Shown here piece by piece: positions 16,585-53,119 of a stretch of 64,000 nt of DNA. Numbering within the stretch: the first letter of the stretch is position 1; each line of letters begins with the position of its first letter. The position numbers and the translations under genes were made by a program. This DNA comes from Moniliella sp. 'wahieum' (Eukaryota). The notes below the pieces were generated by a model. The model had not been told where the DNA came from. It was given only the letters and a program-made list of their open reading frames with translations, and did not search any database. Location: the NCBI GenBank assembly GCA_003971905.1, contig RSEE01000062.1:186001-250000 (forward strand), written 5' to 3'.

Positions 16585-17572
16585 TCAGCCCTTCCTGCGG
16601 GCGACGACGAAGATCACCCCCCCCCCCCCCCCACCCCATGTTCCTTGCCCCGGGGCGGCTTGTTATAGTATACCGATTCCGATTTTATCTTCGGTCTGGC
16701 CTACAATAACCCTGTACTCATCTGATCACTGCCATAAAGTCCACCACTGCAGTGTCCTTGGCTGGCGAAATTTCTCTTTCATTTGCTGATATTAACATTG
16801 GCGCATCGGCCCTCTCCCCGGCTGTAGTACCCGGCTACGCCATGACCGCTACTGTTAAGGCTGCTCCCCCCGGATCCCACTTCTCCTAACGCGACGCGCC
16901 GCTGTCGAGAGTCCCTCTGGCCGTTCATTTCGCCATCAGGCAATCGCGGATGAACGGAAAAAGATACTAGAAGGTTTAGGTACCTGCACATTGTCCCTTG
17001 GCCTGAAAGCGTTCGCCCATACCGGTAAGACTATAGTGCTCTCCCTCGGCGTGTACTTCCCTATGGAACCGTAAAGCATAAAGCACGCGCCTGGCATGGC
17101 TCGCGCACATCAGCCTAAGGACACCTTTGACCTGACTTCCTCTTCATCATCAGTTGTTCCGCACTAACAGTCCGTAGGGCCCCGCGTGTACAAAAGTCGG
17201 TTTCTTCCTTGGCCCGTTCGATAACGTCAGGGAGCCTATCTCTCGGCGCCATTGCATGAAGATTTATCTGAACCCACCCCGAGGCTGGGAGGTGCCGCCG
17301 GGCCATTGTCATCGCGCCGAGCGGCCGTTTGGCGCCTCGAATAGTCCCCGGATACGCCTAGTACCGCTAGTACCACTTGTCGAAACCTTACTGTGGGCCA
17401 CGGCTTCCGGCAATCCTTTAAGGAGTCCTCTGCTGTTTCGCGCCCCCCCCCTCCCCAAACGCTCCGCAGACACTATCACAGCCTTAGCTTTTTTTGTGGA
17501 TGACCCCCTCTAGCTGGTTTCTTCTCCATCGTGCTTTACCAAACCTTTTTCTCGCAGAGAGCCCAGGTACAA

Positions 17573-17760
17573 GGCATGATACTGAGCTGTAGTGACCCTC
17601 TATCTACCTTTCTTGGCGCCTTCTACGTTGATGCACCCATCAACAGAGGGTACACATTGAGCCAGTGCACCTTCATACTTACACTCGATTCTGCCCAAGC
17701 CCGATGAGCCCGAGTTCAACCAGCACCCATCCTACTGATCCAAGACCTCCGATTGGTACC
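17573..17760 (+). pseudogene. Possible decayed Copia RT fragment
   Basis: Translates to SDPLSTFLG...YTLSQ then PKPDEPEFNQHPSY*SK, colinear with GPLHYHLG...LYLSQ...ADPEPP...AYQGK of the intact element. Weak similarity. Confidence 0.3.
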
Positions 17761-18305
17761 CCCAAATAAGCCGACGAGACCCTGCCTAACCCAGCAACGG
17801 AGCGCAACCGTTATTGCGTGCTATCGTTGGGTCCCTTCCACTGTTGGATTGTATTACCTGCCCTGTTGAACTGTGCTAACACAGTGTTCGCCTTATCTTT
17901 CGGTTCGCTGCTGCACTATCCAAAGCAGCAGCACGGGCCGCGTTACTTCCTCCGCCACCTCAGGAGAATATTGGCAACCTTTATGGGTCCACCCGAGCAA
18001 TGTAAGTTGTGTGATATATGCGAGAAGGCACAATATCGAACCACCTGTCTTGTTGACCGAAATGGATGAAGGTCATCCTTCTCCTCCCGTATTAAGCGAT
18101 GTTGGTTGTGCCCTTTTTTCTCGAGACAGTGACGGTGGGGCAACAATGCAGTGTTCGGTTTCAGTATTCTGGCCTCATTCCCACAATGGTACTTTGCTGT
18201 GACAGGATCTGGGTTACTTCTGGATCAGCTGGAATCGTACACTTAGTACTTTGTTGTGCATCTGAGGTCCCATTGTTATAGCTCTGTAGACCAAATGCCT
18301 CATGT

Positions 18306-18899: not shown

Positions 18900-21350
18900 G
18901 ATTGGTGGAACTGATATATCTTCTCGGTTTGGCTGGAAACCAGATGATCCTTTATTCCCACTCAATGCATACACACTCGGTGTCTTTCAGATTGAAGTAG
19001 CGTGTGCCGAATATACGATGCATTGCAGTTAAATCAAGTCTTCTAGACAATTCAGAAAACATAACTATCGGTCCCCCTGAGGCGGAGGAAGGCGTGTGTT
19101 CCATGTCGGATTTAATATCCCAAAGTCTATGAGTGTTGTCATCATGTGGTCTACCGAAAGAGCTTGGTTGGAGTATTACTGAGTAGCATTTGCGTTACAC
19201 GTTACCGGTCCGCTGCTCAGCATGAGGAAAGTATTGCTGCCTGAAAGTGTTGAATCTGGTCATTTATGGCCAAGGTCACTTCCAAGTGACATCATGGTGT
19301 GATGCGCGTGTGATGTTTTCTGACGTGGCGTTTCCGACTCCATGATGACTTGGATTTGCCACGCCTTAGAAATTTGATCTCCATCGACCACCATTCCCTT
19401 TGCTGCGCTTTGAGCTCTCCTGGGCGTTAATGAGTTACAATCTGAACCTTTCCTTCTGAGTAACTTCTTTCTCATCCATTTTATCTCTGTGCCTACTTTA
19501 CTACTCTCCACCCTCCGCTTCCGAGCCTACAACTCAAGCCCACCCGAACCACCCATACTTACCTTCGTCCCTCCCCAATGTCCGCCCCCTGGTATAACCA
19601 CCTCTTCCCACCTCCTTCGAACGATGAAGAGGCCAGAATGTCAATAGAGCCTCGGCCATCCTCAACAATCTCCAAGATCATATCGCACTTTATCCTCTCA
19701 ACAGAGCGTGCGCAGCCCCCAACATCCCCAACTCCAAATCGGCTCTGACATCCTGTCAACAGGACGTCGATCGCCTGGGCCGTTCCCACCTTGACAAGGA
19801 TCCCACTGCCTATGCCCGTGCCCTTGAAAAAGGGCCATGATTTAACCTCGATCGTGGTACGCAGCTCAGCGAGGAACAGCTCGTACGCTTGTGCGTCAGC
19901 ACATGCAATCAAAAGTCATCGGTGTGCAGGCAATCAAAACTAGACCAGGTTTGAACGGCGGAAAAAGAGAAATGGTTCAGAGCGTAGGCGCCGGAAGCCC
20001 AGACGGCCCACATAGGTACTGCCGCAGCCACTTGTTAAAGTTGGCGCGCTCTGGTCCATATAGACTCTTCTTTAGCTTCCAGCACGTGCCGGGTCCATCG
20101 GAAAAGAAGGGAGGAGAATGGACGTATACGTCTTCGTCGAGGTCGGCATAGAGATAAGCCGCGTCTAAATGTTCTTTGCTAACCCTTTGTTGTGTCAATC
20201 GGGCGAACCCATGCCCGTCGCGCATCCCGTCTGCTAAAAACATTTTCGATTTCTATGTGTGCGCTCTGATCGTGTGCACATGTTAACCAAGCACTTGGCA
20301 TGTTGAAGAGGCTTTGTGTTTTCACTTAGTAGGCGTACATCGTTAAATGTCTCAATTCCATTCTATGGACCTCCATACCGTCCGTATATCGCACTCTTCG
20401 CTTTCGCGAGGGGTCCACGAAGACGCGCGCCTTGCAATTTGTGGATAATGGAGACAGCAATAAGTTTCATTCATGTCTGCTTGTCATCGGCCCTACCTTG
20501 GCCCAGTTCTCCCGATGAGTATTAGAATGATGGTCATACTGGACGAAAGCTTCTGCTTATAAATCGTCGAGCAAATTGGCCAAAGAAAGAAAAGTCGACT
20601 CGTGACTGCGGGGTCCAATCGGTCCTGGGAGCGATGTCAACCAACAAAACTCGCTTTCAAATTTTACAAACCCTCAGCCCGACCCGGCTCCCCCAATGGC
20701 AACAAGACCTGACATCGGTTCTAGGTTTCGATAATTGCGTTCTCGTTGATGTCGGAAGCAATCATCGTCTGTGGACAAAGCGGTAAAAAACAATCATGGG
20801 CCGAAGACGGGGAGCGAGGCCGGATGAGTATATGTGCTCACTTACCCAAGATGCACTTCCAAGTGCCGAGGAGGCCTTGGCCTCGGCTACGCCGAGTACA
20901 TAGGTCCCCTGTTTTCATGTGGATTAACCGACCCAATTTTCAATGTGATTGCCTCATCAGTAGAGGTAAACCGGAAGGGCGCGAGGATCCATGCATTTGT
21001 GCGGGGGTCCGAATGGTCATCAATCATACGTATTCTTGTGGGCGATGGCAATCGCACCCCTTGTGACAGTCGCACCCCTTGCCTGTTCATATCTTGTGCT
21101 CTTACCCAAATGTTTGGGCGGATTGGGGACGAAGCGTAGGGAGTCTGTTTATTTTCTTACAATGGCGCTATGCTCCCATTCATCACGGAAAGGAAAAGTA
21201 AGAACACTGCTGCTGCGGTGCCACTGGTCGCATGTCACCAGTGTAACACGCAGTTCAGCACACAACATATACGCAGATGTTGGTCCGAAAATCGGGAGCA
21301 TGACTGCCGCCTTGGGAGGCCACCTTCGGCGTCTGTCACTCAAGAACAAG
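18900..21350 (-). pseudogene. Degenerate Ty1/Copia pol relic (pre-integrase, integrase, RT, RNase H)
   Basis: Minus-strand fragments in Copia order: AAVMLP..AELRVT..RDEW (~21300-21170), MIDDHS (~21020), LDAAYLYADLDEDVYVHSPPFF...WKLKKSLYG (~20170-20050), HTDDF (~19925), SDLG..FLMLSSGPVT and TLIDFG (~19280-19110). Many stops and shifts; ends approximate. Confidence 0.75.
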
Positions 21351-21616
21351 GTAAAAAGGGTTTAGTATTGGCCAAGTTGTTATTTGGTCAGCTGAGAAGG
21401 CTGTTCGAAGGTGATTCCTTCAATCTCTAAAAAAAAAGGAGACGGAAGTTGTTCGTCAGTCCAGTCCGGGTACGAAAGGTGAAGGGGGTAGGGGGTGGAG
21501 TGTTGCTGATTGTTTATATGAAAGACGCCGAAGGGGAGAGTGGGGTTGGGTATGGGTAAGGTGCGAGGAGATGAGAATATGGAGAGTGCGGGGTCATCAC
21601 CGTTGCTCACTGGAAT

Positions 21617-21776
21617 TGTTGACATCCGTCCTAGGACCGCGCGGACCCTGAGTCACGTGAGTCAGCTTTCATTCCTTCCGAGCTCGCACCAGTCTTCTGG
21701 ACGAGTCAGTCGCAGAAGCTTCTTAGTCCAATACGACGTTCAGTGCTCACATTCTGTGGTAGTAGCGAGGCCGACA
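21617..21776 (+). repeat. 5' LTR
   Basis: Matches 26516-26675 base for base on my reading. Confidence 0.95.
21649..21664. promoter_or_regulatory. Tandem TGAGTCA (Gcn4/AP-1 type) sites overlapping a CACGTG E-box in the LTR
   Basis: TGAGTCACGTGAGTCA; the copy in the 3' LTR is at 26548-26563. Function is inferred. Confidence 0.45.
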
Positions 21777-21787
21777 GAGTTACATCC
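21777..21787 (+). promoter_or_regulatory. Putative primer-binding site complementary to the tRNA-Tyr(GUA) anticodon arm
   Basis: GAGTTACATCC directly follows the LTR. The reverse complement of spliced tRNA-Tyr nt 30-40 (GATTGTAACTC) is GAGTTACAATC. Confidence 0.6.
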
Positions 21788-21830
21788 TTATCTGCTCATC
21801 CCTGAGCTGGCCAAAACTACACCCACAACC

Positions 21831-23078
21831 ATGGGCGCCAACGCTAACACCGATCTCTCGGTCAGCGACACCACAATGGTGAACAAGCGCGATTACTGGA
21901 CACCAACCGGTCGCGATCCGCCACCGATTGGCACCGACAACGAGGAACTCATGATGCTTTGCGCCGAAGCGCACCTGTGGTTCAAGAAGACGAACGACAT
22001 CGATGTCGTTAAAGAGAAGATCAACAGAGCTATACACGACAGAGCCGAGTGGCTTGGATGGAAGGACGAACCTACGTCTATCACGACAAACTGGGTTCGA
22101 CGGGCTACGAATTTTGTGGTGCAAAACATCCACCAAATGGAAACTCAACCCAACGCAACTTTGGGGGCACCTACAGGCGCAGCCTCGCGACCCGAGTACG
22201 ACCTTTACAGATCACTACGCGAGTCTCCCACCAAGAATATCAAGTGGCCTGATCTGAACAAAGACCCGTCCGCCTACAGCGCTTGGGAAGACGAATTTCT
22301 CTTCGCGATAACAGATGCCCACCCCCACGCAAGCGACGTCGTCCAGAATGGTCGCAGCTCCCGCTACTTCACCGAGGACCTCGACAGACGCTTGCACAAC
22401 CTTCTTAGGGAAGCCATGCCGTCAACCCTCTTCCGGACGATCCGCACCCACCACGAAATATCATGCACCCAGGACACGCTGAACATGCTGCGTCAGCGGT
22501 ATGGATATACGCCTACCGCAAACAGAGGGCCTCTACTCATTCGCTACTTTTCGGCCGACCAAGGAAACCGATCGGGTCGAGACTACCTCGACTACATGGA
22601 AGAGATCAGTGCAAGCCTGACGCGAGCGGGCATCCCACTTACGGAAGAGCAGGAACGCACTGGGATCCTACTCGGCTTACGCGACATGAGCATTCGCCAG
22701 CGTGAAGAGCGCTCGAGTCTAGACAAGTTACGGCAGGCCGTGATGGACATACCAGCCGCCACGTATCCCGGTGGAGAAAGGAAGAGAAACGGAGGCAAGC
22801 CGGTCAACGGAGGAACGCCTTGGACTCGACCCGACAGCGGGGGACGACCCACCAGCGGGGGAAAAAACTCCAGCGGGGGCAAAGCCGGCGACGACAACCT
22901 CGCGGACACAAAGACCAAGGGGCAAGACCGCACCAACCAACCCTGGCGCAGCGCGACGTCTAATAAACCTGTTGTCCCTCCGCGCAACCCAGGCCGAGCC
23001 AACGCTCACGTCGCTCAGAGAGCGAGCTCTCCCGAGTCTGAAGTGATTGACGTTGATGCGGGCACAGCTGACTACTAG
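21831..23078 (+). CDS. gag: Copia Gag (no CCHC zinc knuckle visible)
   Basis: ATG 54 nt after the LTR, Gag-like YSAWEDEF and YLDYMEEISASLTRAGIPL segments, basic Gly-rich C-terminus, ends at an in-frame TAG. Confidence 0.85.
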   Translation: MGANANTDLSVSDTTMVNKRDYWTPTGRDPPPIGTDNEELMMLCAEAHLWFKKTNDIDVVKEKINRAIHDRAEWLGWKDEPTSITTNWVRRATNFVVQNIHQMETQPNATLGAPTGAASRPEYDLYRSLRESPTKNIKWPDLNKDPSAYSAWEDEFLFAITDAHPHASDVVQNGRSSRYFTEDLDRRLHNLLREAMPSTLFRTIRTHHEISCTQDTLNMLRQRYGYTPTANRGPLLIRYFSADQGNRSGRDYLDYMEEISASLTRAGIPLTEEQERTGILLGLRDMSIRQREERSSLDKLRQAVMDIPAATYPGGERKRNGGKPVNGGTPWTRPDSGGRPTSGGKNSSGGKAGDDNLADTKTKGQDRTNQPWRSATSNKPVVPPRNPGRANAHVAQRASSPESEVIDVDAGTADY

Positions 23079-26000
23079 GAACTCGGGGGCGAAATGCGAA
23101 TCATCCGGGCATTATATGACAGTGGGGCATTCCCATCCATTTGGAAAGACAAATCCGTCTTCACATCCATGACCCCTTGCGACGACGAGATAGAGGTTGC
23201 TAACGGGACACATGTAAAGGCGGAAGGACGAGGCACGGCCACAATCCGTATCCGATGCTTAGGAGGACACCAAATGGAGATAAAACTCCCCAACAGCCTA
23301 TACATGCCCCGTTTCAGCCGAAATCTCGTCAGTGTAGCACACCTGTCGAACACCGGAATCGCATCATACTTCGCCCCACACCAGAAGGGTATCTGGCTTG
23401 GTAACCCAGGATCCACCCTACGAAAAGTAACCGGCAGTGACTATCAATTCACGATCTTACACAACCCGCGAACGCCACCCACACCCCTGCGGGCCATGGC
23501 GACCAAACCGATCAAACCGGCCGACCCACCCTCAACCCCAAACTCCCTCGCAGCATCCCTGGCCCTGGACCACGTCTCTAAAGCCCACAAACGCTGGAAC
23601 CACGCAGCCATCGACCTCCTCCCCTGGCTTACACGATCGGAAACCGCAGGCCTCCGCGTCACAGCCAAGCATATCTCCCTCTGTCGTTCAGAGTGGGATT
23701 GCCCAACATGCGCGGTGGCACTAGCGACAGCATCGCCCCATCCGAGCCGGGACCGCCTCCGATCCAAAAGACCTTTCGAGGTCCTCCACGTCGACGTAGT
23801 AGACCTCCCCCGGGTAACCGGCATGGGGCACGGATACGCCCTCGTCGCCGTTGATGACTTCACGCGGTACGTCTTCACCACAGCGATCCCGACAAAGGGC
23901 GCTGCAACGAAGGAACTGCGGAACCTCATATTGCGGGAGCAACGCTACGGCCCGGACAGACTGCTGCGGACTTTGCGCACGGACAACGCCCCCGAATTGA
24001 CAAGCGCACTGCAACCTTTTCTGGACGAGCAAGGCATCACGTCAGAACGGACAATCCCGGGGCAGAGTGCTAGCAACGGTGTGGCTGAGCGTGCCATCCG
24101 AACCATAACGACTCGTGCAAGGCAGTTGCTCTTGGGTACAGGTCTTCCGACGTCGGACTGGTGGGAACACAGCCTCCACGCTGCGTGCTTCACCCAAAAC
24201 CAAATGCCACTCAAAACATCCGGGGAAGACAACAAATCGCGATTTGAGCGATACAAAGGCCACGCATACTCGTTACCGATGCAACCCTTTGGCCGCGTTG
24301 CATACCTCCATCTGCCCGAGTCACGCCGCGAGCACAAGCTCAGCGCGCGGGCAGAGGAAGGTATGCTGGTAGGATACCACCATCAGCGCGGATCAAAGGG
24401 ATGGCTCTTCGCCACATACCAACCATCCCTGGGTACCTTCACCTACCGCTGGTCGAAACCGTACAAATGGGGCAACGCCATCTACCCCCATCTCCACCCC
24501 GACCACTTCCCACCCGACATCTCCAAATCACCTCAAATTAAAATCGACAGTGAAAAAGACGCTAACCCTACTCCGCCAGCCGCGGCAGCACCCATGCCCC
24601 GAACCGCCGCCACACCCCAGACACCCGCTCCCACCACCACCCCCCCTCCGCGCCGCTACCCCCTCCGCCAGCGCACCACCCGCACCTCCCTCGACCTGCA
24701 CACACTCCCAATCGCTGACGACCCCACCGACACGACCTACCATGCTCGTGCTGCAGCCGCCACGCCCCCACGCCCGCACCAGAGATCGGCATCGCCCGCC
24801 CCCTACCTGACACATCCGCCCCCCCGTTTGCCGACACAGTTCAACCTCCCGAATACGCCGCCATGACTGCTCTCAGCGCACCCATCCACCCGGACACGGT
24901 TCAGCTCACCAAGGATGGCGTACCCCTCGCTCCCAAGACGCTCAAGGGTCTCGAGACTCACCCCTCCTTTGCCATGGTCAAGCAGGCTATGGCCGACGAG
25001 GTGGCCACACTCGCGCGATACGGCACCTACGAGGCTACGTACCCACCACCGGGTGCACAAATCCTCATAGGACTATGGCGCATCACCACAAAGACGGACG
25101 CCGAGGGCCGGTTCCTGCGCCACCGCGCGCGCTTTGTCGCGGGCGGACACCAACAATCGGCCGAGACTTGGGGCCAGACGTTCGCACCATCGGTGCGCAC
25201 ACCTGCCATCCTGACCCTCGTCGTGCTGGCCGAGAAGTATAAGTTTGGCCTCTTCTCGGCGGACGTCAATGCAGCGTACCTGAACGCCCCCCTCGAAGAA
25301 GCAGTCTACATCCGCCCACCCCCCTACTTCCCCGAAGCGGGTGGTCGCGTGTGGCGTCTCAAGAAGAGTCTATACGGGCTACATCAGAGCGGAGCAAACT
25401 GGGCACGATACATCCGGAACCTGCTGCGTGACAAGCTCGGCTTCACGCAAAGCTTGACCGAGCCCTGCTTGTTCGTGCGCGCTGCACCACCGGGTGAGCA
25501 GATCCTCCTGGCGGTCCACACCGACGATCTGCTCCTCGCATGCAAGTCACACCAAAAGTACGAGGAGTTTATGGCCGAGATAAACACACACATTGATGTT
25601 CGTGGTAACGGTCCCCTTCACTACCACCTGGGATGCCAATACGATCGGATCGGTGGGGAGCTGTACCTGAGCCAACCAAAGTTCATCGAGGAAGTGGTGG
25701 CAAAGCACCACATCAAAGCCCCGTGGATCCGGACTCTCCCACATCCCGTACGGATGATACCGCCCCGTGCCGACCCTGAACCCCCATCCCTCCCAGCCTT
25801 GCGCAAGGCATATCAGGGGAAGATCGGATCGGGACTGTGGGCTGCACGAATGGGCCGGCCTGACTCCCTCTTCGCTATCACGGCCCTCAGCAGAGCCGCT
25901 GCCGACCCATCGCAGCAGCATCATCAAGCAGTCGATGACTTCCTTCGCTACCTGTACCATACTCGAGGAAAGGGCCTGAGGTTGACCCCAACATCAGATG

Positions 26001-26521
26001 CACCGGCCATTGCGCTGTATACAGATTCCGACTTGGCGGGAGATCCCATCCAGGCACGCTCCACATCTGGATGCCTACTGATGGTGTACGGTGTGCCGGT
26101 GTCGTGGCGATCCATTCTTCAGCCGAAGAGCGTTACCAGTACCGCCGCCGCCGAATATACGGCAGGATATGATGGACTGGTTGACGCCAACTATGTCAAG
26201 AACATCATGATCGAGCTTGGGGCCATCGGCGAGGGTACACCCATTCATTGGTATTGCGACAATAAGTCTGTCGTCGATCTCGCCCACAAATTTGGCAGCA
26301 CCGGCAAGCTCCGAGAGCTGAAGATCCGGTACCACAATGTACGGCAACACGTGGACTCGGGCGAGGCCATACTTGTACACATCCCCGGCGAAAGGAACCC
26401 AGCGGACGTCCTCACCAAGCCTCTCGGCCGTCCCGCCCTGACAAGCCATCTTGCTCAACTCCGCGTCGAGGAGATGGATCCAGTCCACATGACTGGGCCC
26501 TCCGGTCAGCGGGGGTGTTGA
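23079..26521 (+). CDS. pol: Copia Pol (protease, integrase, reverse transcriptase, RNase H)
   Basis: PR LYDSGA; HKRWNH...CPTC; IN LHVDVV, VDDFTRY, RTDNAPE, NGVAERAIR; RT RARFVAGG, ADVNAAYLNA, LKKSLYGLHQSG, VHTDDLL; RH YTDSD, AEY, CDN, PADVLTKPL. One frame change in the C-rich IN-RT linker (~24760-24860). Confidence 0.95.
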
Positions 26522-26675
26522 CATCCGTCCTAGGACCGCGCGGACCCTGAGTCACGTGAGTCAGCTTTCATTCCTTCCGAGCTCGCACCAGTCTTCTGGA
26601 CGAGTCAGTCGCAGAAGCTTCTTAGTCCAATACGACGTTCAGTGCTCACATTCTGTGGTAGTAGCGAGGCCGACA
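26516..26675 (+). repeat. 3' LTR
   Basis: Copy of 21617-21776; the pol stop TGA lies in its first 6 nt. Confidence 0.95.
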
Positions 26676-27276
26676 GAATTGCGAAGGGTTGTAACTTCCG
26701 GATGGTTCTCAAGTCTCAAGGGTGAGATGTAATCGCACTGGTGGTGATGGTCTGTCAACCAGCAACACCTAATACCGATAAGGAACATCAAGCAGCTAGT
26801 CGTGACCAGGGGATGCTAGCCTGTACCTTGCCCCCCCCCCCCCCCCCCCCCCCCCCCTCAATTGCTCTCCTCATCTCCTACTTCAGTGCTCCACCACTCC
26901 GCCTTGTTGTCACGGTTACTCTTTGCACCACCGCTCCCCTTTTAAGGTATGGGAGGGACGCGTCGACGCGACTCTGTATATGCCCGATCGTTGGCGTAGC
27001 CAGCCCCACCTCCCCGTCACGTGCAGGTCGGGGAGCAGTAGGGTTGTTGGCACTTTTCTTTGCCTGCTGCCATATGGAAAGTAGTAGATAGATATACCCC
27101 GGTGTCACGTGCTCGCAGGGATCCAGCGCACGCGTCTAGCCCGTCTCGCTCGCCGTGCTGCTCAGAGTCGCTGCCGTGCACACCACCCGCACGCCAACAA
27201 GAGTAGCTGTTACGACTTTCCCACATCCATCTCCAGTCAGATGCCCAATAAACAGGGATCGAGAGGTAGGTCGGTC

Positions 27277-33702: not shown

Positions 33703-33931
33703 TGTTGAGCCATCGGGTGTTGGCTCGTGCTTTGGCCAATGTCCCTTCAGTTCCTCATCATGCCTGGGAGCTCTGTTTTCTTCCTGTTTTTCCTTGTTCA
33801 GCAGCTTGTAGCCCCTGGTGGCGACTCGCTGCTTGATGTTCCTCTGTAGGCGTTGCTGGTTGGCTTAGACCACCACCACACCAGTGCGATTGCATCACCC
33901 TCGAGGACCATCAGGACTCCAGGTCTCATCA
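33703..33931. mobile_element. Solo LTR, family B (229 bp)
   Basis: TGTTGAG...CTCATCA termini, perfect TSD GGATC on both sides, homologous to 50799-51026. Confidence 0.9.
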
Positions 33932-34574: not shown

Positions 34575-34670
34575 GGCGAGATAGCGAAAGTGGTCTAACG
34601 CGCTGTGTTAAGGACGCTTAATCCTAAACCGCAGTCATCCGGGGCGTGGGTTCGAATCCCACTCTCGTCA
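34575..34670 (+). tRNA. tRNA-Leu(AAG) with intron
   Basis: GGCGAGA/TCTCGTC acceptor stem, D-loop GTGGTCTA, CTGTG-TTAAGG..CGCAG anticodon arm interrupted by ~16 nt, long variable arm, GGTTCGAATCC, T6 terminator. Confidence 0.9.
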
Positions 34671-34804
34671 CTTTTTTACACTGAACCCCCCGCCATTCAC
34701 TCCCAGAAAACACATAACGCCAACTACTGAATGAATGCAACCATGTATCAGGTCATGTGGTGGTCTAAGCAAATTCACTACACATGACCTGTGAGTGGCT
34801 AAGG

Positions 34805-48654: not shown

Positions 48655-48746
48655 TCTCCCCTCTGGGAGTCGAACCCAGGACATTCAGAGCGGAGTAACT
48701 CCACGTGACCGATTACAATCTGACGCTTCAACTGAGCTAAGGAGAG
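48655..48746 (-). tRNA. tRNA-Tyr(GTA) with 22-nt intron
   Basis: CTCTCCT/AGGGGAG-A acceptor, TCAGA-TTGTAA[intron]C-TCTGA anticodon arm, CTGGGTTCGACTCCCAG T arm, downstream T-runs. The D-loop is short and lacks GG in this read. Confidence 0.85.
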
Positions 48747-50798: not shown

Positions 50799-51026
50799 TG
50801 TTGAGCCATCGGGTGGCTCGTGCTTTGGCTAATGTCCCTTCAGCTCCTCTTCAAGCCTGGGAGTTCTGTTGTTTTTCTCCTGTTTTTCCTTGTTCCGCAG
50901 CTTAGCCCCTGGTGGCGACTCGCTGCTTGCTGTTCCTTTGTAGGTGTTGCTGGTTGGCTTAGACCACCACCACCACCAGTGCGATTGCATCACCCTCAAA
51001 GACCATCCACACTCCAGGTCTCATCA
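50799..51026. mobile_element. Solo LTR, family B (228 bp)
   Basis: TGTTGAG...CTCATCA termini, perfect TSD GTTCA on both sides, homologous to 33703-33931. Confidence 0.9.
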
Positions 51027-51880: not shown

Positions 51881-51952
51881 GGCTCGATAGCGTAGTGGTA
51901 ACGCGTCCCTGACCTATCGGCGATGTCATGGGTTCGATTCCCATTCGAGCCT
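51881..51952 (+). tRNA. tRNA-like gene with disrupted anticodon arm (CCT/Arg by position; possible pseudogene)
   Basis: Perfect GGCTCGA/TCGAGCC acceptor, GCGT/ACGC D stem, ATGGG-TTCGATT-CCCAT T arm, TTTT downstream. Anticodon arm TCCCT-GACCTAT-CGGCG pairs poorly. Confidence 0.7.
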
Positions 51953-53119
51953 CTCTTTTCCTCACTATTTCCCCGGGCTCTGCCTTCTCACTCTGGATAT
52001 TCCAAGTGGAGGTACTATACCGGCAAATAGATGAATGCTACGGCGCCGATTCTGGGAAACACTAAAGGAAGTTTATATATGCCCCATAGGAAAACAACGT
52101 GCTTTAAACCCGAGGAGCCAGAACATGGAAATTGCTTATACAACTAAAGTCCGCAGCCGTGGATATGATTATTGACAAGAATACACTCTCTCGAGACGCC
52201 TGGTAATTGTGGCTGATGAAGGAGCAAAAACGTGCAGTGGGGAGTATAGAGAAAATGGAGGCTGCAAGTGGAGTAGACGAATGAGGGAGTAAGCGAGTGA
52301 AGGAGAGGGCGTAGTGGATGGTAATACATGTTCGGCTATACTTGGGACTGATTTGTTTGGACCATCACAGCCACCTATTACCACGTTTTTTCAATTATTT
52401 ATACTCAAGCTGTTCTCATCATTTCGTCTCGTCTCTCTCTCTTTCCTCGACATCGAGAAGAAGCACAGAAGGGCATCGAGGACCAAATATACCATCATCG
52501 CTGTCTCTCCTTACAAGCCCTATTCTGCTTCTCTGGATTGAGTTGCATTCATATTCCATTGCAATGATCCCCACGGATCGCAATGATCCCCTTCTCCAAC
52601 AGCCCTTGCGACCTCCACTGTGGGTGTTCGATGGTGACCAACATCCGTCCTCTTGGCTTGATTCACACTCTGTTTGACGGAACCATGCGCAACCTCTCTT
52701 GGGTAGCACAGTTACAAAATTCAGGTTATCCATCAGATTAGCACACGTGCAGCAACATAACTCATGACTACTAGTACTAGTAGTAGTAGGTGGGACAGAA
52801 AATGGACCCCATTCCTTTGCTATCTCTGATGTCGGTATGCTCCATTCTTCCCCAGCGTAGCTTGAAATGGCGAAAGAGTCAAATCCAATGACAGTGTCCG
52901 ATGCAAGACAGACGGGGGGGGGTGAATGGTTAACCAGAGAGGGGCAAGGCGGGACACGACAGAACGGGAGCATCGAGCGTGTTCAAGACGGAGATATGTC
53001 GGGGGAAGGATTGCAGAGAATGGAGCCAGGACGTTCAACTAGGAAAGCGGAACGGCATAAGAGGAGGATTGAACCATTGCAAGAGAGGAAGAAGGAAAAA
53101 TACGGCCGACACCGTAAAA

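Follow-up and report, generated by a model that had tools for sequence, protein, structure and literature searches.

The Ty1/copia LTR retrotransposon at 21617-26675 (5,059 bp, one copy in the 64-kb stretch of DNA analyzed here, hereafter the window) probably carries, from position 21777 directly after its 5' LTR, a primer-binding site for half of tRNA-Tyr. By sequence comparison this site of a hemivirus-type element appears to have been switched from the half tRNA-iMet site found in its relatives. More tentatively, the element may represent a hemivirus-like Copia lineage (Ustilaginomycotina) in which spliced tRNA-Tyr(GUA) has taken over, through its 5' half, from half tRNA-iMet as the primer, maybe with a two-part contact to the anticodon arm and the D-arm. 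This extended reading is possible, and we hold it with less assurance than the primer site itself.

The element had the features of Ty1/copia. It is flanked by a GAAT target-site duplication whose left (21613-21616) and right (26676-26679) copies abut the outer ends of the LTRs; counting in the opening T of the LTR would make it a 5-bp duplication, GAATT. The 5' LTR (21617-21776, plus strand; 160 nt, TGTTGACATCC...GGCCGACA) and the 3' LTR (26516-26675, plus strand) form a TG..CA pair (TGTTG..GACA) and are identical at 160/160 positions, and thus little time has passed for the element. The genes, all on the plus strand, follow the Ty1/copia order of gag, protease, integrase, and reverse transcriptase (RT), with the integrase 5' of an RT of the RVT_2 type. 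The gag ORF (21831-23078, 415 aa) had no match to any Pfam family and ends at an in-frame TAG (23076-23078). Pol part 1 (23079-24866) stays in the gag frame and contains the protease (Pol_BBD, DSG motif) and integrase (rve), with both Pfam matches within 23094-24866. Pol part 2 (24719-26521) is in the -1 frame and contains the RT (RVT_2, E 2e-37, within 24863-26521) and the C-terminal part. A G-rich polypurine tract, AGCGGGGG (26508-26515, plus strand), abuts the 3' LTR.

Two interruptions separate this copy from an intact polyprotein. The TAG after gag is followed by a G and sits just 5' of the protease DSG motif; it is either a nonsense mutation or a stop codon that is read through. The -1 frame change lies somewhere in 24719-24866, where there is a C-rich tract with a C7 run at 24819-24825. 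The four related elements with translated polyproteins had single uninterrupted ORFs of 1,474-2,297 aa. Given the TAG after gag, the pol frame change, and a primer site one base short of a perfect 11-mer, the copy at 21617-26675 has probably lost its autonomy.

A class II myosin head encoded in the window is 63-69% identical to the Ustilaginomycotina proteins among its matches, for example those of Acaromyces, Thecaphora, Violaceomyces, and Tilletia, which places this DNA in a basidiomycete of that group. The window also contained a second LTR family (TGTTGAGCC...GGTCTCATCA, ~229 nt), with copies at 33703-33931, 50799-51026, and 26715-26812 (minus strand). Two of these are solo LTRs with perfect 5-bp duplications (GGATC and GTTCA) that sit 640-860 nt upstream of a tRNA-Leu gene and of an odd tRNA gene (51881), and the partial third copy starts ~40 nt past the 3' flank of the young Copia element. 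A GTTACAA beside that 3' flank (26695, minus strand) was rejected as a further primer-like site since it is at chance level, with five such 7-mers against 7.8 expected.

The sequence directly 3' of the 5' LTR was GAGTTACATCCTTATC, as had been claimed in the preliminary description of this DNA. Its first eight bases, GAGTTACA (21777-21784), are the exact complement of spliced tRNA-Tyr(GUA) from nt 40 to nt 33, and with the following TC (21785-21786) they make up the putative primer-binding site (21777-21786, plus strand). When the leader (21765-21830) was compared with the three tRNAs of the window, the longest exact complement was CAGAGTTACA (21775-21784), pairing with tRNA-Tyr nt 33-42, and neither of the other two tRNAs gave a better match. 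This 10-nt complement consists of the eight bases past the LTR plus the CA of the LTR itself. The TC pairs with tRNA-Tyr nt 31-30 only if one tRNA base bulges. A perfect Tyr 11-mer would read GAGTTACAATC; the element has GAGTTACA-TC, or 10/11 with one A absent, and the bases 3' of this shortened site did not match tRNA-Tyr. The layout given earlier, eight bases after the LTR, two more in its CA, and a TC beyond a missing A, was therefore reproduced in full. The missing A might be a read error, as was suggested earlier; it belongs to a 2-nt run, generally a rare place for such errors.

Other kinds of primer site were a poor fit to this position. No TGG-type site for a tRNA 3' CCA end adjoined the 5' LTR, and in a by-eye comparison 6/11 positions differed from the half-iMet motif GGTTATGRGCC, which agrees with the earlier statement that the site is of neither type. 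The unspliced tRNA-Tyr gene gave no complement at the site, so the match needs the spliced form and, as previously noted, spans the exon junction; the element would accordingly use a mature, spliced tRNA. Self-priming of the Tf1 type and hairpin sites as in GalEa elements both occur in fungal LTR elements (PMC5445492), and either could in principle stand in for a tRNA here. There was no complement of at least 6 nt between 21777-21800 and the LTR, which leaves without support the self-priming that had been named as a possible refutation. The conserved GalEa hairpin motif described in the same source is palindromic over 9 bp, the final A of the LTR being one of them, and in the window element that A joined to GAGTTACAT is not palindromic, unlike CTGATCAGT or CTAATTAGT. 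We regard priming by either route as highly improbable.

The proposed primer is the product of a tRNA-Tyr(GTA) gene at 48655-48746 (minus strand), with a 22-nt intron at 48691-48712 and TTTTT 6 nt downstream. The gene forms a cloverleaf, and a local search with the Rfam tRNA model gave it 43.7 bits (gathering score 29). Eukaryotic nuclear tRNA introns sit at 37/38, and cutting the 22 nt out at that position gave the arm TCAGA TTGTAAC TCTGA with the anticodon GTA, exactly the arm that had been predicted. The gene also has C1-G72 and A73, which are Tyr identity marks. Alongside these traits of a eukaryotic tRNA-Tyr gene (cloverleaf, GTA anticodon, and 37/38 intron), its D-loop is short and without the usual GG, so 48655-48746 may not be the main Tyr gene. 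The minimum free energy fold of the pre-tRNA did not contain the D and anticodon arms of a cloverleaf (z -0.55) and so says nothing for or against the gene.

Automated searches handled this gene poorly. ARAGORN without -i and a whole-window Rfam scan at the gathering score both missed it, and ARAGORN with -i called Gly(TCC), which cuts the block after nt 33 and implies a non-canonical intron. We rejected Gly(TCC) on two grounds: an intron at the canonical 37/38 position yields GTA, and a second site in the window (at 19432, described below) complements exactly that spliced form. The tRNA-Tyr intron (48691-48712, minus strand) contains GGAGTTACTCC, in the same sense as the GAGTTACATCC of the element. 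The shared sense arises since the intron is complementary both to the anticodon and to the start of the 3' exon, and the likeness means that searches with the unspliced gene could mislead. Introns were present in 2/3 tRNA genes of the window, the other being a 15-nt intron in the tRNA-Leu(AAG) gene at 34575-34671. The remaining tRNA-like gene, at 51881-51953, scored 52 bits on Rfam and was called Gly(ACC) by ARAGORN; its anticodon stem has two mismatched pairs, and it is possibly a pseudogene or the head of a tRNA-derived repeat.

We scanned bacterial and archaeal genome contigs for relatives using an alignment of the window RT and nine homologs. The 17 related Copia loci that it yielded lie on contaminant contigs; identity was 25-32% across most of the RT and 39% in one short segment. 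Eight of the 17 loci include a 5' end, and the remaining nine begin inside the coding region. In 8/8 loci with a 5' end, the end of the LTR (ACA in seven, TCA in L006) was followed at once by GGTYATGRGC, a half-tRNA-iMet site. The relatives' sites read GGTTATGGGCC, GGTTATGAGCC, or GGTCATGGGC. They are antisense to the anticodon stem-loop of iMet, and a published probe against iMet-CAU, TCTGGGTTATGGGCCCA, contains GGTTATGGGCCC. Two Gs, not three, come after the LTR end in these loci, so the first base pairs with C40. Priming from the 3'-OH of nt 40 is what has been described for hemiviruses (PMC1181622), and the register of Drosophila copia and Ty5 that had been invoked for the window element was thus present in every relative with a readable 5' end. 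Like the window element, the eight relatives had LTRs that start with TGTTG or TGTTA and end with ACA or TCA, and a G-rich polypurine tract (..GGGAG or ..GGGGGCG) precedes the LTR start.

Read in the register of the relatives, the window site gives C40 U39 C38 A37 A36 U35 G34 U33. These bases obey the rules for an anticodon loop (U33, purine at 37), carry the anticodon GUA, and are identical to those of the window Tyr gene. Relative to the iMet sites, the anticodon complement has changed from ATG to TAC and the register is unchanged. The relatives pair over 10-12 nt with the iMet arm, from nt 40 to ~30 (counted by eye), versus eight contiguous nt in the window element.

In a tree the window RT grouped, weakly, with the half-iMet loci and not with the plant clade, on a branch of 2.73 for which the tool warns of long-branch joining. 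Because of this long branch, the shared-lineage argument is only moderate. The best match in a protein search with the RT part was 31% identical, and accordingly no family members were found there. Five relatives were whole elements collapsed into circular-looking contigs. These (L001, L004, L006, L007, and L011) are complete eukaryotic Copia elements in the form of apparent circles with exact 121-141-nt terminal overlaps, and their contigs are filed under bacterial MAGs assigned to Mycobacterium, Actinomycetes, Bryobacteraceae, and Rhodobacteraceae. In those genome bins the five contigs are contamination.

The uniform half-iMet sites of the relatives raise the question of whether 21777-21786 is simply a decayed or rearranged half-iMet remnant in a defective copy, priming nothing. 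The in-frame TAG after gag and the frame change in pol fit such a dead site, as does the half-iMet motif in 8/8 readable relatives. Against it, the LTRs are identical at 160/160 positions, yet by eye 6/11 nt differ from GGTTATGAGCC, and decay would not be expected to yield an exact, in-register complement to the loop of a different tRNA. We therefore give a dead site little weight and consider it very unlikely.

A second, orphan site lies 2.3 kb upstream of the element. GAGTTACAATCTGA (19432-19445, plus strand) complements nt 27-40 of spliced tRNA-Tyr at all 14 positions, and its two ends coincide with nt 40 and with the foot of the stem. It was the sole exact 14-mer complement in the window, with ~5e-4 expected by chance (arithmetic). 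The site independently confirms the 37/38 splice form with C38 and, whichever element it came from, that there was an RNA with the spliced A37-C38 junction, complemented up to nt 40. It is probably the primer site of another, fragmentary element. The bases that precede it, ..GCGTTAAT, are not the LTR-like ..ACA. BLAST of 19050-19620 against the window at word size 7 found no other copy of its flanks, and local alignment of the flanks to the LTR and leader of the young element was no better than that of shuffles.

An alternative for this second site is that 19422-19494 is a box C/D snoRNA-like gene or pseudogene whose guide happens to complement tRNA-Tyr. Rfam snoZ221/snoR21b matched there with 22.2 bits (E 0.017 in a 301-nt search), as did U30 with 19.1 bits. 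The 22.2 bits are far under the gathering score (44), and in an 8-kb search the same match had E 0.46, with clearly spurious matches at 20.4 and 20.0 bits. The C box (UAAUGAG) and D box (CUGU) depart from RUGAUGA and CUGA, and the D' guide lacks 15 nt. With a score at noise level in the 8-kb search and imperfect boxes, we judged the snoRNA reading to be quite unlikely and set it aside.

The surroundings of the second site held other transposon remains. The stretch 19737-20652 is minus-strand debris of a related Copia, with a GC content of ~0.48-0.51 compared with 0.59 for the window. It includes an LTR at 20528-20641 (minus strand) with 68% identity to that of the young element and, within 19980-20252 (minus strand), an RVT_2 fragment that shares 40-46% of its residues with the young RT. 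A short match to the C-terminal part of pol at 19737-19778 was weak (E 8.2). On the plus strand, 17228-17806 resembled an RT (tblastn E 0.35) but was rejected, as the frame at 17178-17513 was without Pfam support.

How much of the tRNA-Tyr match could be chance depends on what is held fixed. The duplex between site and tRNA is weak (-10.6 kcal/mol), a value that 10% of random window 14-mers equal against the tRNA half, and random 8-mers of the window have a complement in one of its three tRNAs with a frequency of 0.0044, of which ~0.001 is the Tyr gene itself. The 8-mer alone is weak evidence, and the register taken from the relatives strengthens the case: an 8-nt match to one of three tRNAs in a fixed register is expected at 3/4^8, or ~5e-5 (arithmetic). 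A chance match, a coincidence picked out in hindsight, would mean that the true primer is another tRNA half, another tRNA-Tyr variant, or a non-tRNA RNA. The shortness and AU-richness of the match would suit that reading, and the comparison set was the three tRNA genes of the window. Reasoning from the rules for anticodon loops, UGUAACUC would fit the loops of just two tRNAs, Tyr (nt 33-40) and Thr-UGU (nt 34-41), and a tRNA-Thr(UGU) with a 3' stem starting CUC would match equally well, one base off register. The register that gives the ~5e-5 was set independently by eight relatives, however, and the read-out satisfies the U33 and purine-37 rules. The second site also supplies a 14-nt exact complement to the same spliced arm, up to the same nt 40, in the same transposon-rich stretch. 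We find a chance match unlikely overall, and an unseen other primer is the main open rival to half tRNA-Tyr.

The proposal in the preliminary description that half of a mature tRNA-Tyr serves as primer was hence upheld in part. The register and the 14-nt second site speak for it, and the eight contiguous nt of pairing and the single, defective copy count against it. A possible additional contact is CTGAGCT (21802-21808, plus strand), complementary to AGCTCAG in the tRNA-Tyr D-arm. Shuffled sequences were as good in 174/2000 and 359/2000 cases, which is not significant, and a CTGAG that is also present 24 nt past the start of the 19432 site is not significant alone. A second contact between the leader and the D-arm is thus only suggestive.

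If half tRNA-Tyr is the primer, replication would start as follows. The element RNA would pair over 8 nt (10 with a bulge) just after U5 with the anticodon loop and the 3' side of the anticodon stem of tRNA-Tyr, nt 33-40. The tRNA would be cut after nt 40, and the reverse transcriptase would extend the resulting 3'-OH through U5 and R to make minus-strand strong-stop DNA. The sequence shows the anatomy, the complementarity, and the shared register; that the RNAs anneal in particles, that the cut falls at nt 40, and that priming takes place are inferred.

The choice of primer defines lineages of LTR retroelements and is used in their taxonomy, with the ICTV separating Hemivirus from Pseudovirus by the use of a short tRNA segment as primer (PMC8515867). 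A Tyr half would add a case in which the relatives keep iMet, which would make the switch datable and the RT determinants of primer choice comparable. If true, the element would be the first demonstrated case of a retroelement primed by tRNA-Tyr. Its primer would exist only after splicing, and transposition would then depend on the tRNA splicing pathway; the match to the spliced form offers a direct way to place the step of tRNA biogenesis that supplies the primer. Standard annotation of primer-binding sites looks for tRNA 3' ends and would label this element 'no PBS'. Here, ARAGORN missed or mis-called the tRNA gene with its intron, and the Rfam scan missed it.

Half-tRNA primers other than iMet have precedents. 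Plant Bianca elements have a 1/2 tRNA-Ile site (PMC6317226), fungal FunCo1 has an internal tRNA-Lys site, ATTAAGAGTCT (PMC5445492), and gamma and whio of Candida albicans have internal tRNA-Arg(UCU) sites (PMC4139406). In bivalve TRIMs, the sequence just behind the 5' repeat resembles the central part of tRNA-Tyr, a likeness that the authors did not treat as a primer site (PMC6934838). In the article texts searched, no half-tRNA-Tyr primer was described. The earlier remark that no described example was known therefore stands for a half-tRNA-Tyr primer, though the novelty is less than it implied, given the published Ile, Lys, and Arg halves and the bivalve likeness to Tyr.

Among known systems, the closest is hemivirus Copia (Drosophila copia, Ty5, Osser, and 1731). 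As in these, the window site directly abuts the LTR, complements an anticodon stem-loop, and has its first base opposite about nt 40, in an element with Copia gene order; the nt-40 priming register is the one reported for hemiviruses (PMC1181622). The window element differs in that its site complements TAC (Tyr) instead of ATG (iMet), in its shorter pairing of 8 nt, or 10 with a bulge, and in that its proposed primer must first be spliced. Its primer complement is not initiator tRNA-Met, which to our knowledge primes all ICTV-listed hemivirus members. Bianca, FunCo1, and gamma/whio are alike in having switched primer within half-tRNA priming, in all cases deduced from sequence only. They use other tRNAs, and their sites are found in many copies or families, versus a single copy and one orphan site here. 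The bivalve TRIMs share tRNA-Tyr, the internal region, and the position directly after the 5' repeat (PMC6934838). They are non-autonomous animal elements, compared here by tRNA, region, and position. Bipartite or extended primer contacts are known from Ty1 and Ty3, with D-arm contacts described for Ty3 (PMC5371799), and the possible contact between the leader at 21802-21808 and the tRNA-Tyr D-arm would resemble these. Ty1 and Ty3 differ in using the tRNA 3' end, and the D-arm complement of the window element was not significant alone. Set among these systems, the half-tRNA-Tyr primer is read as a variant of a known priming trick and not as a new mechanism.
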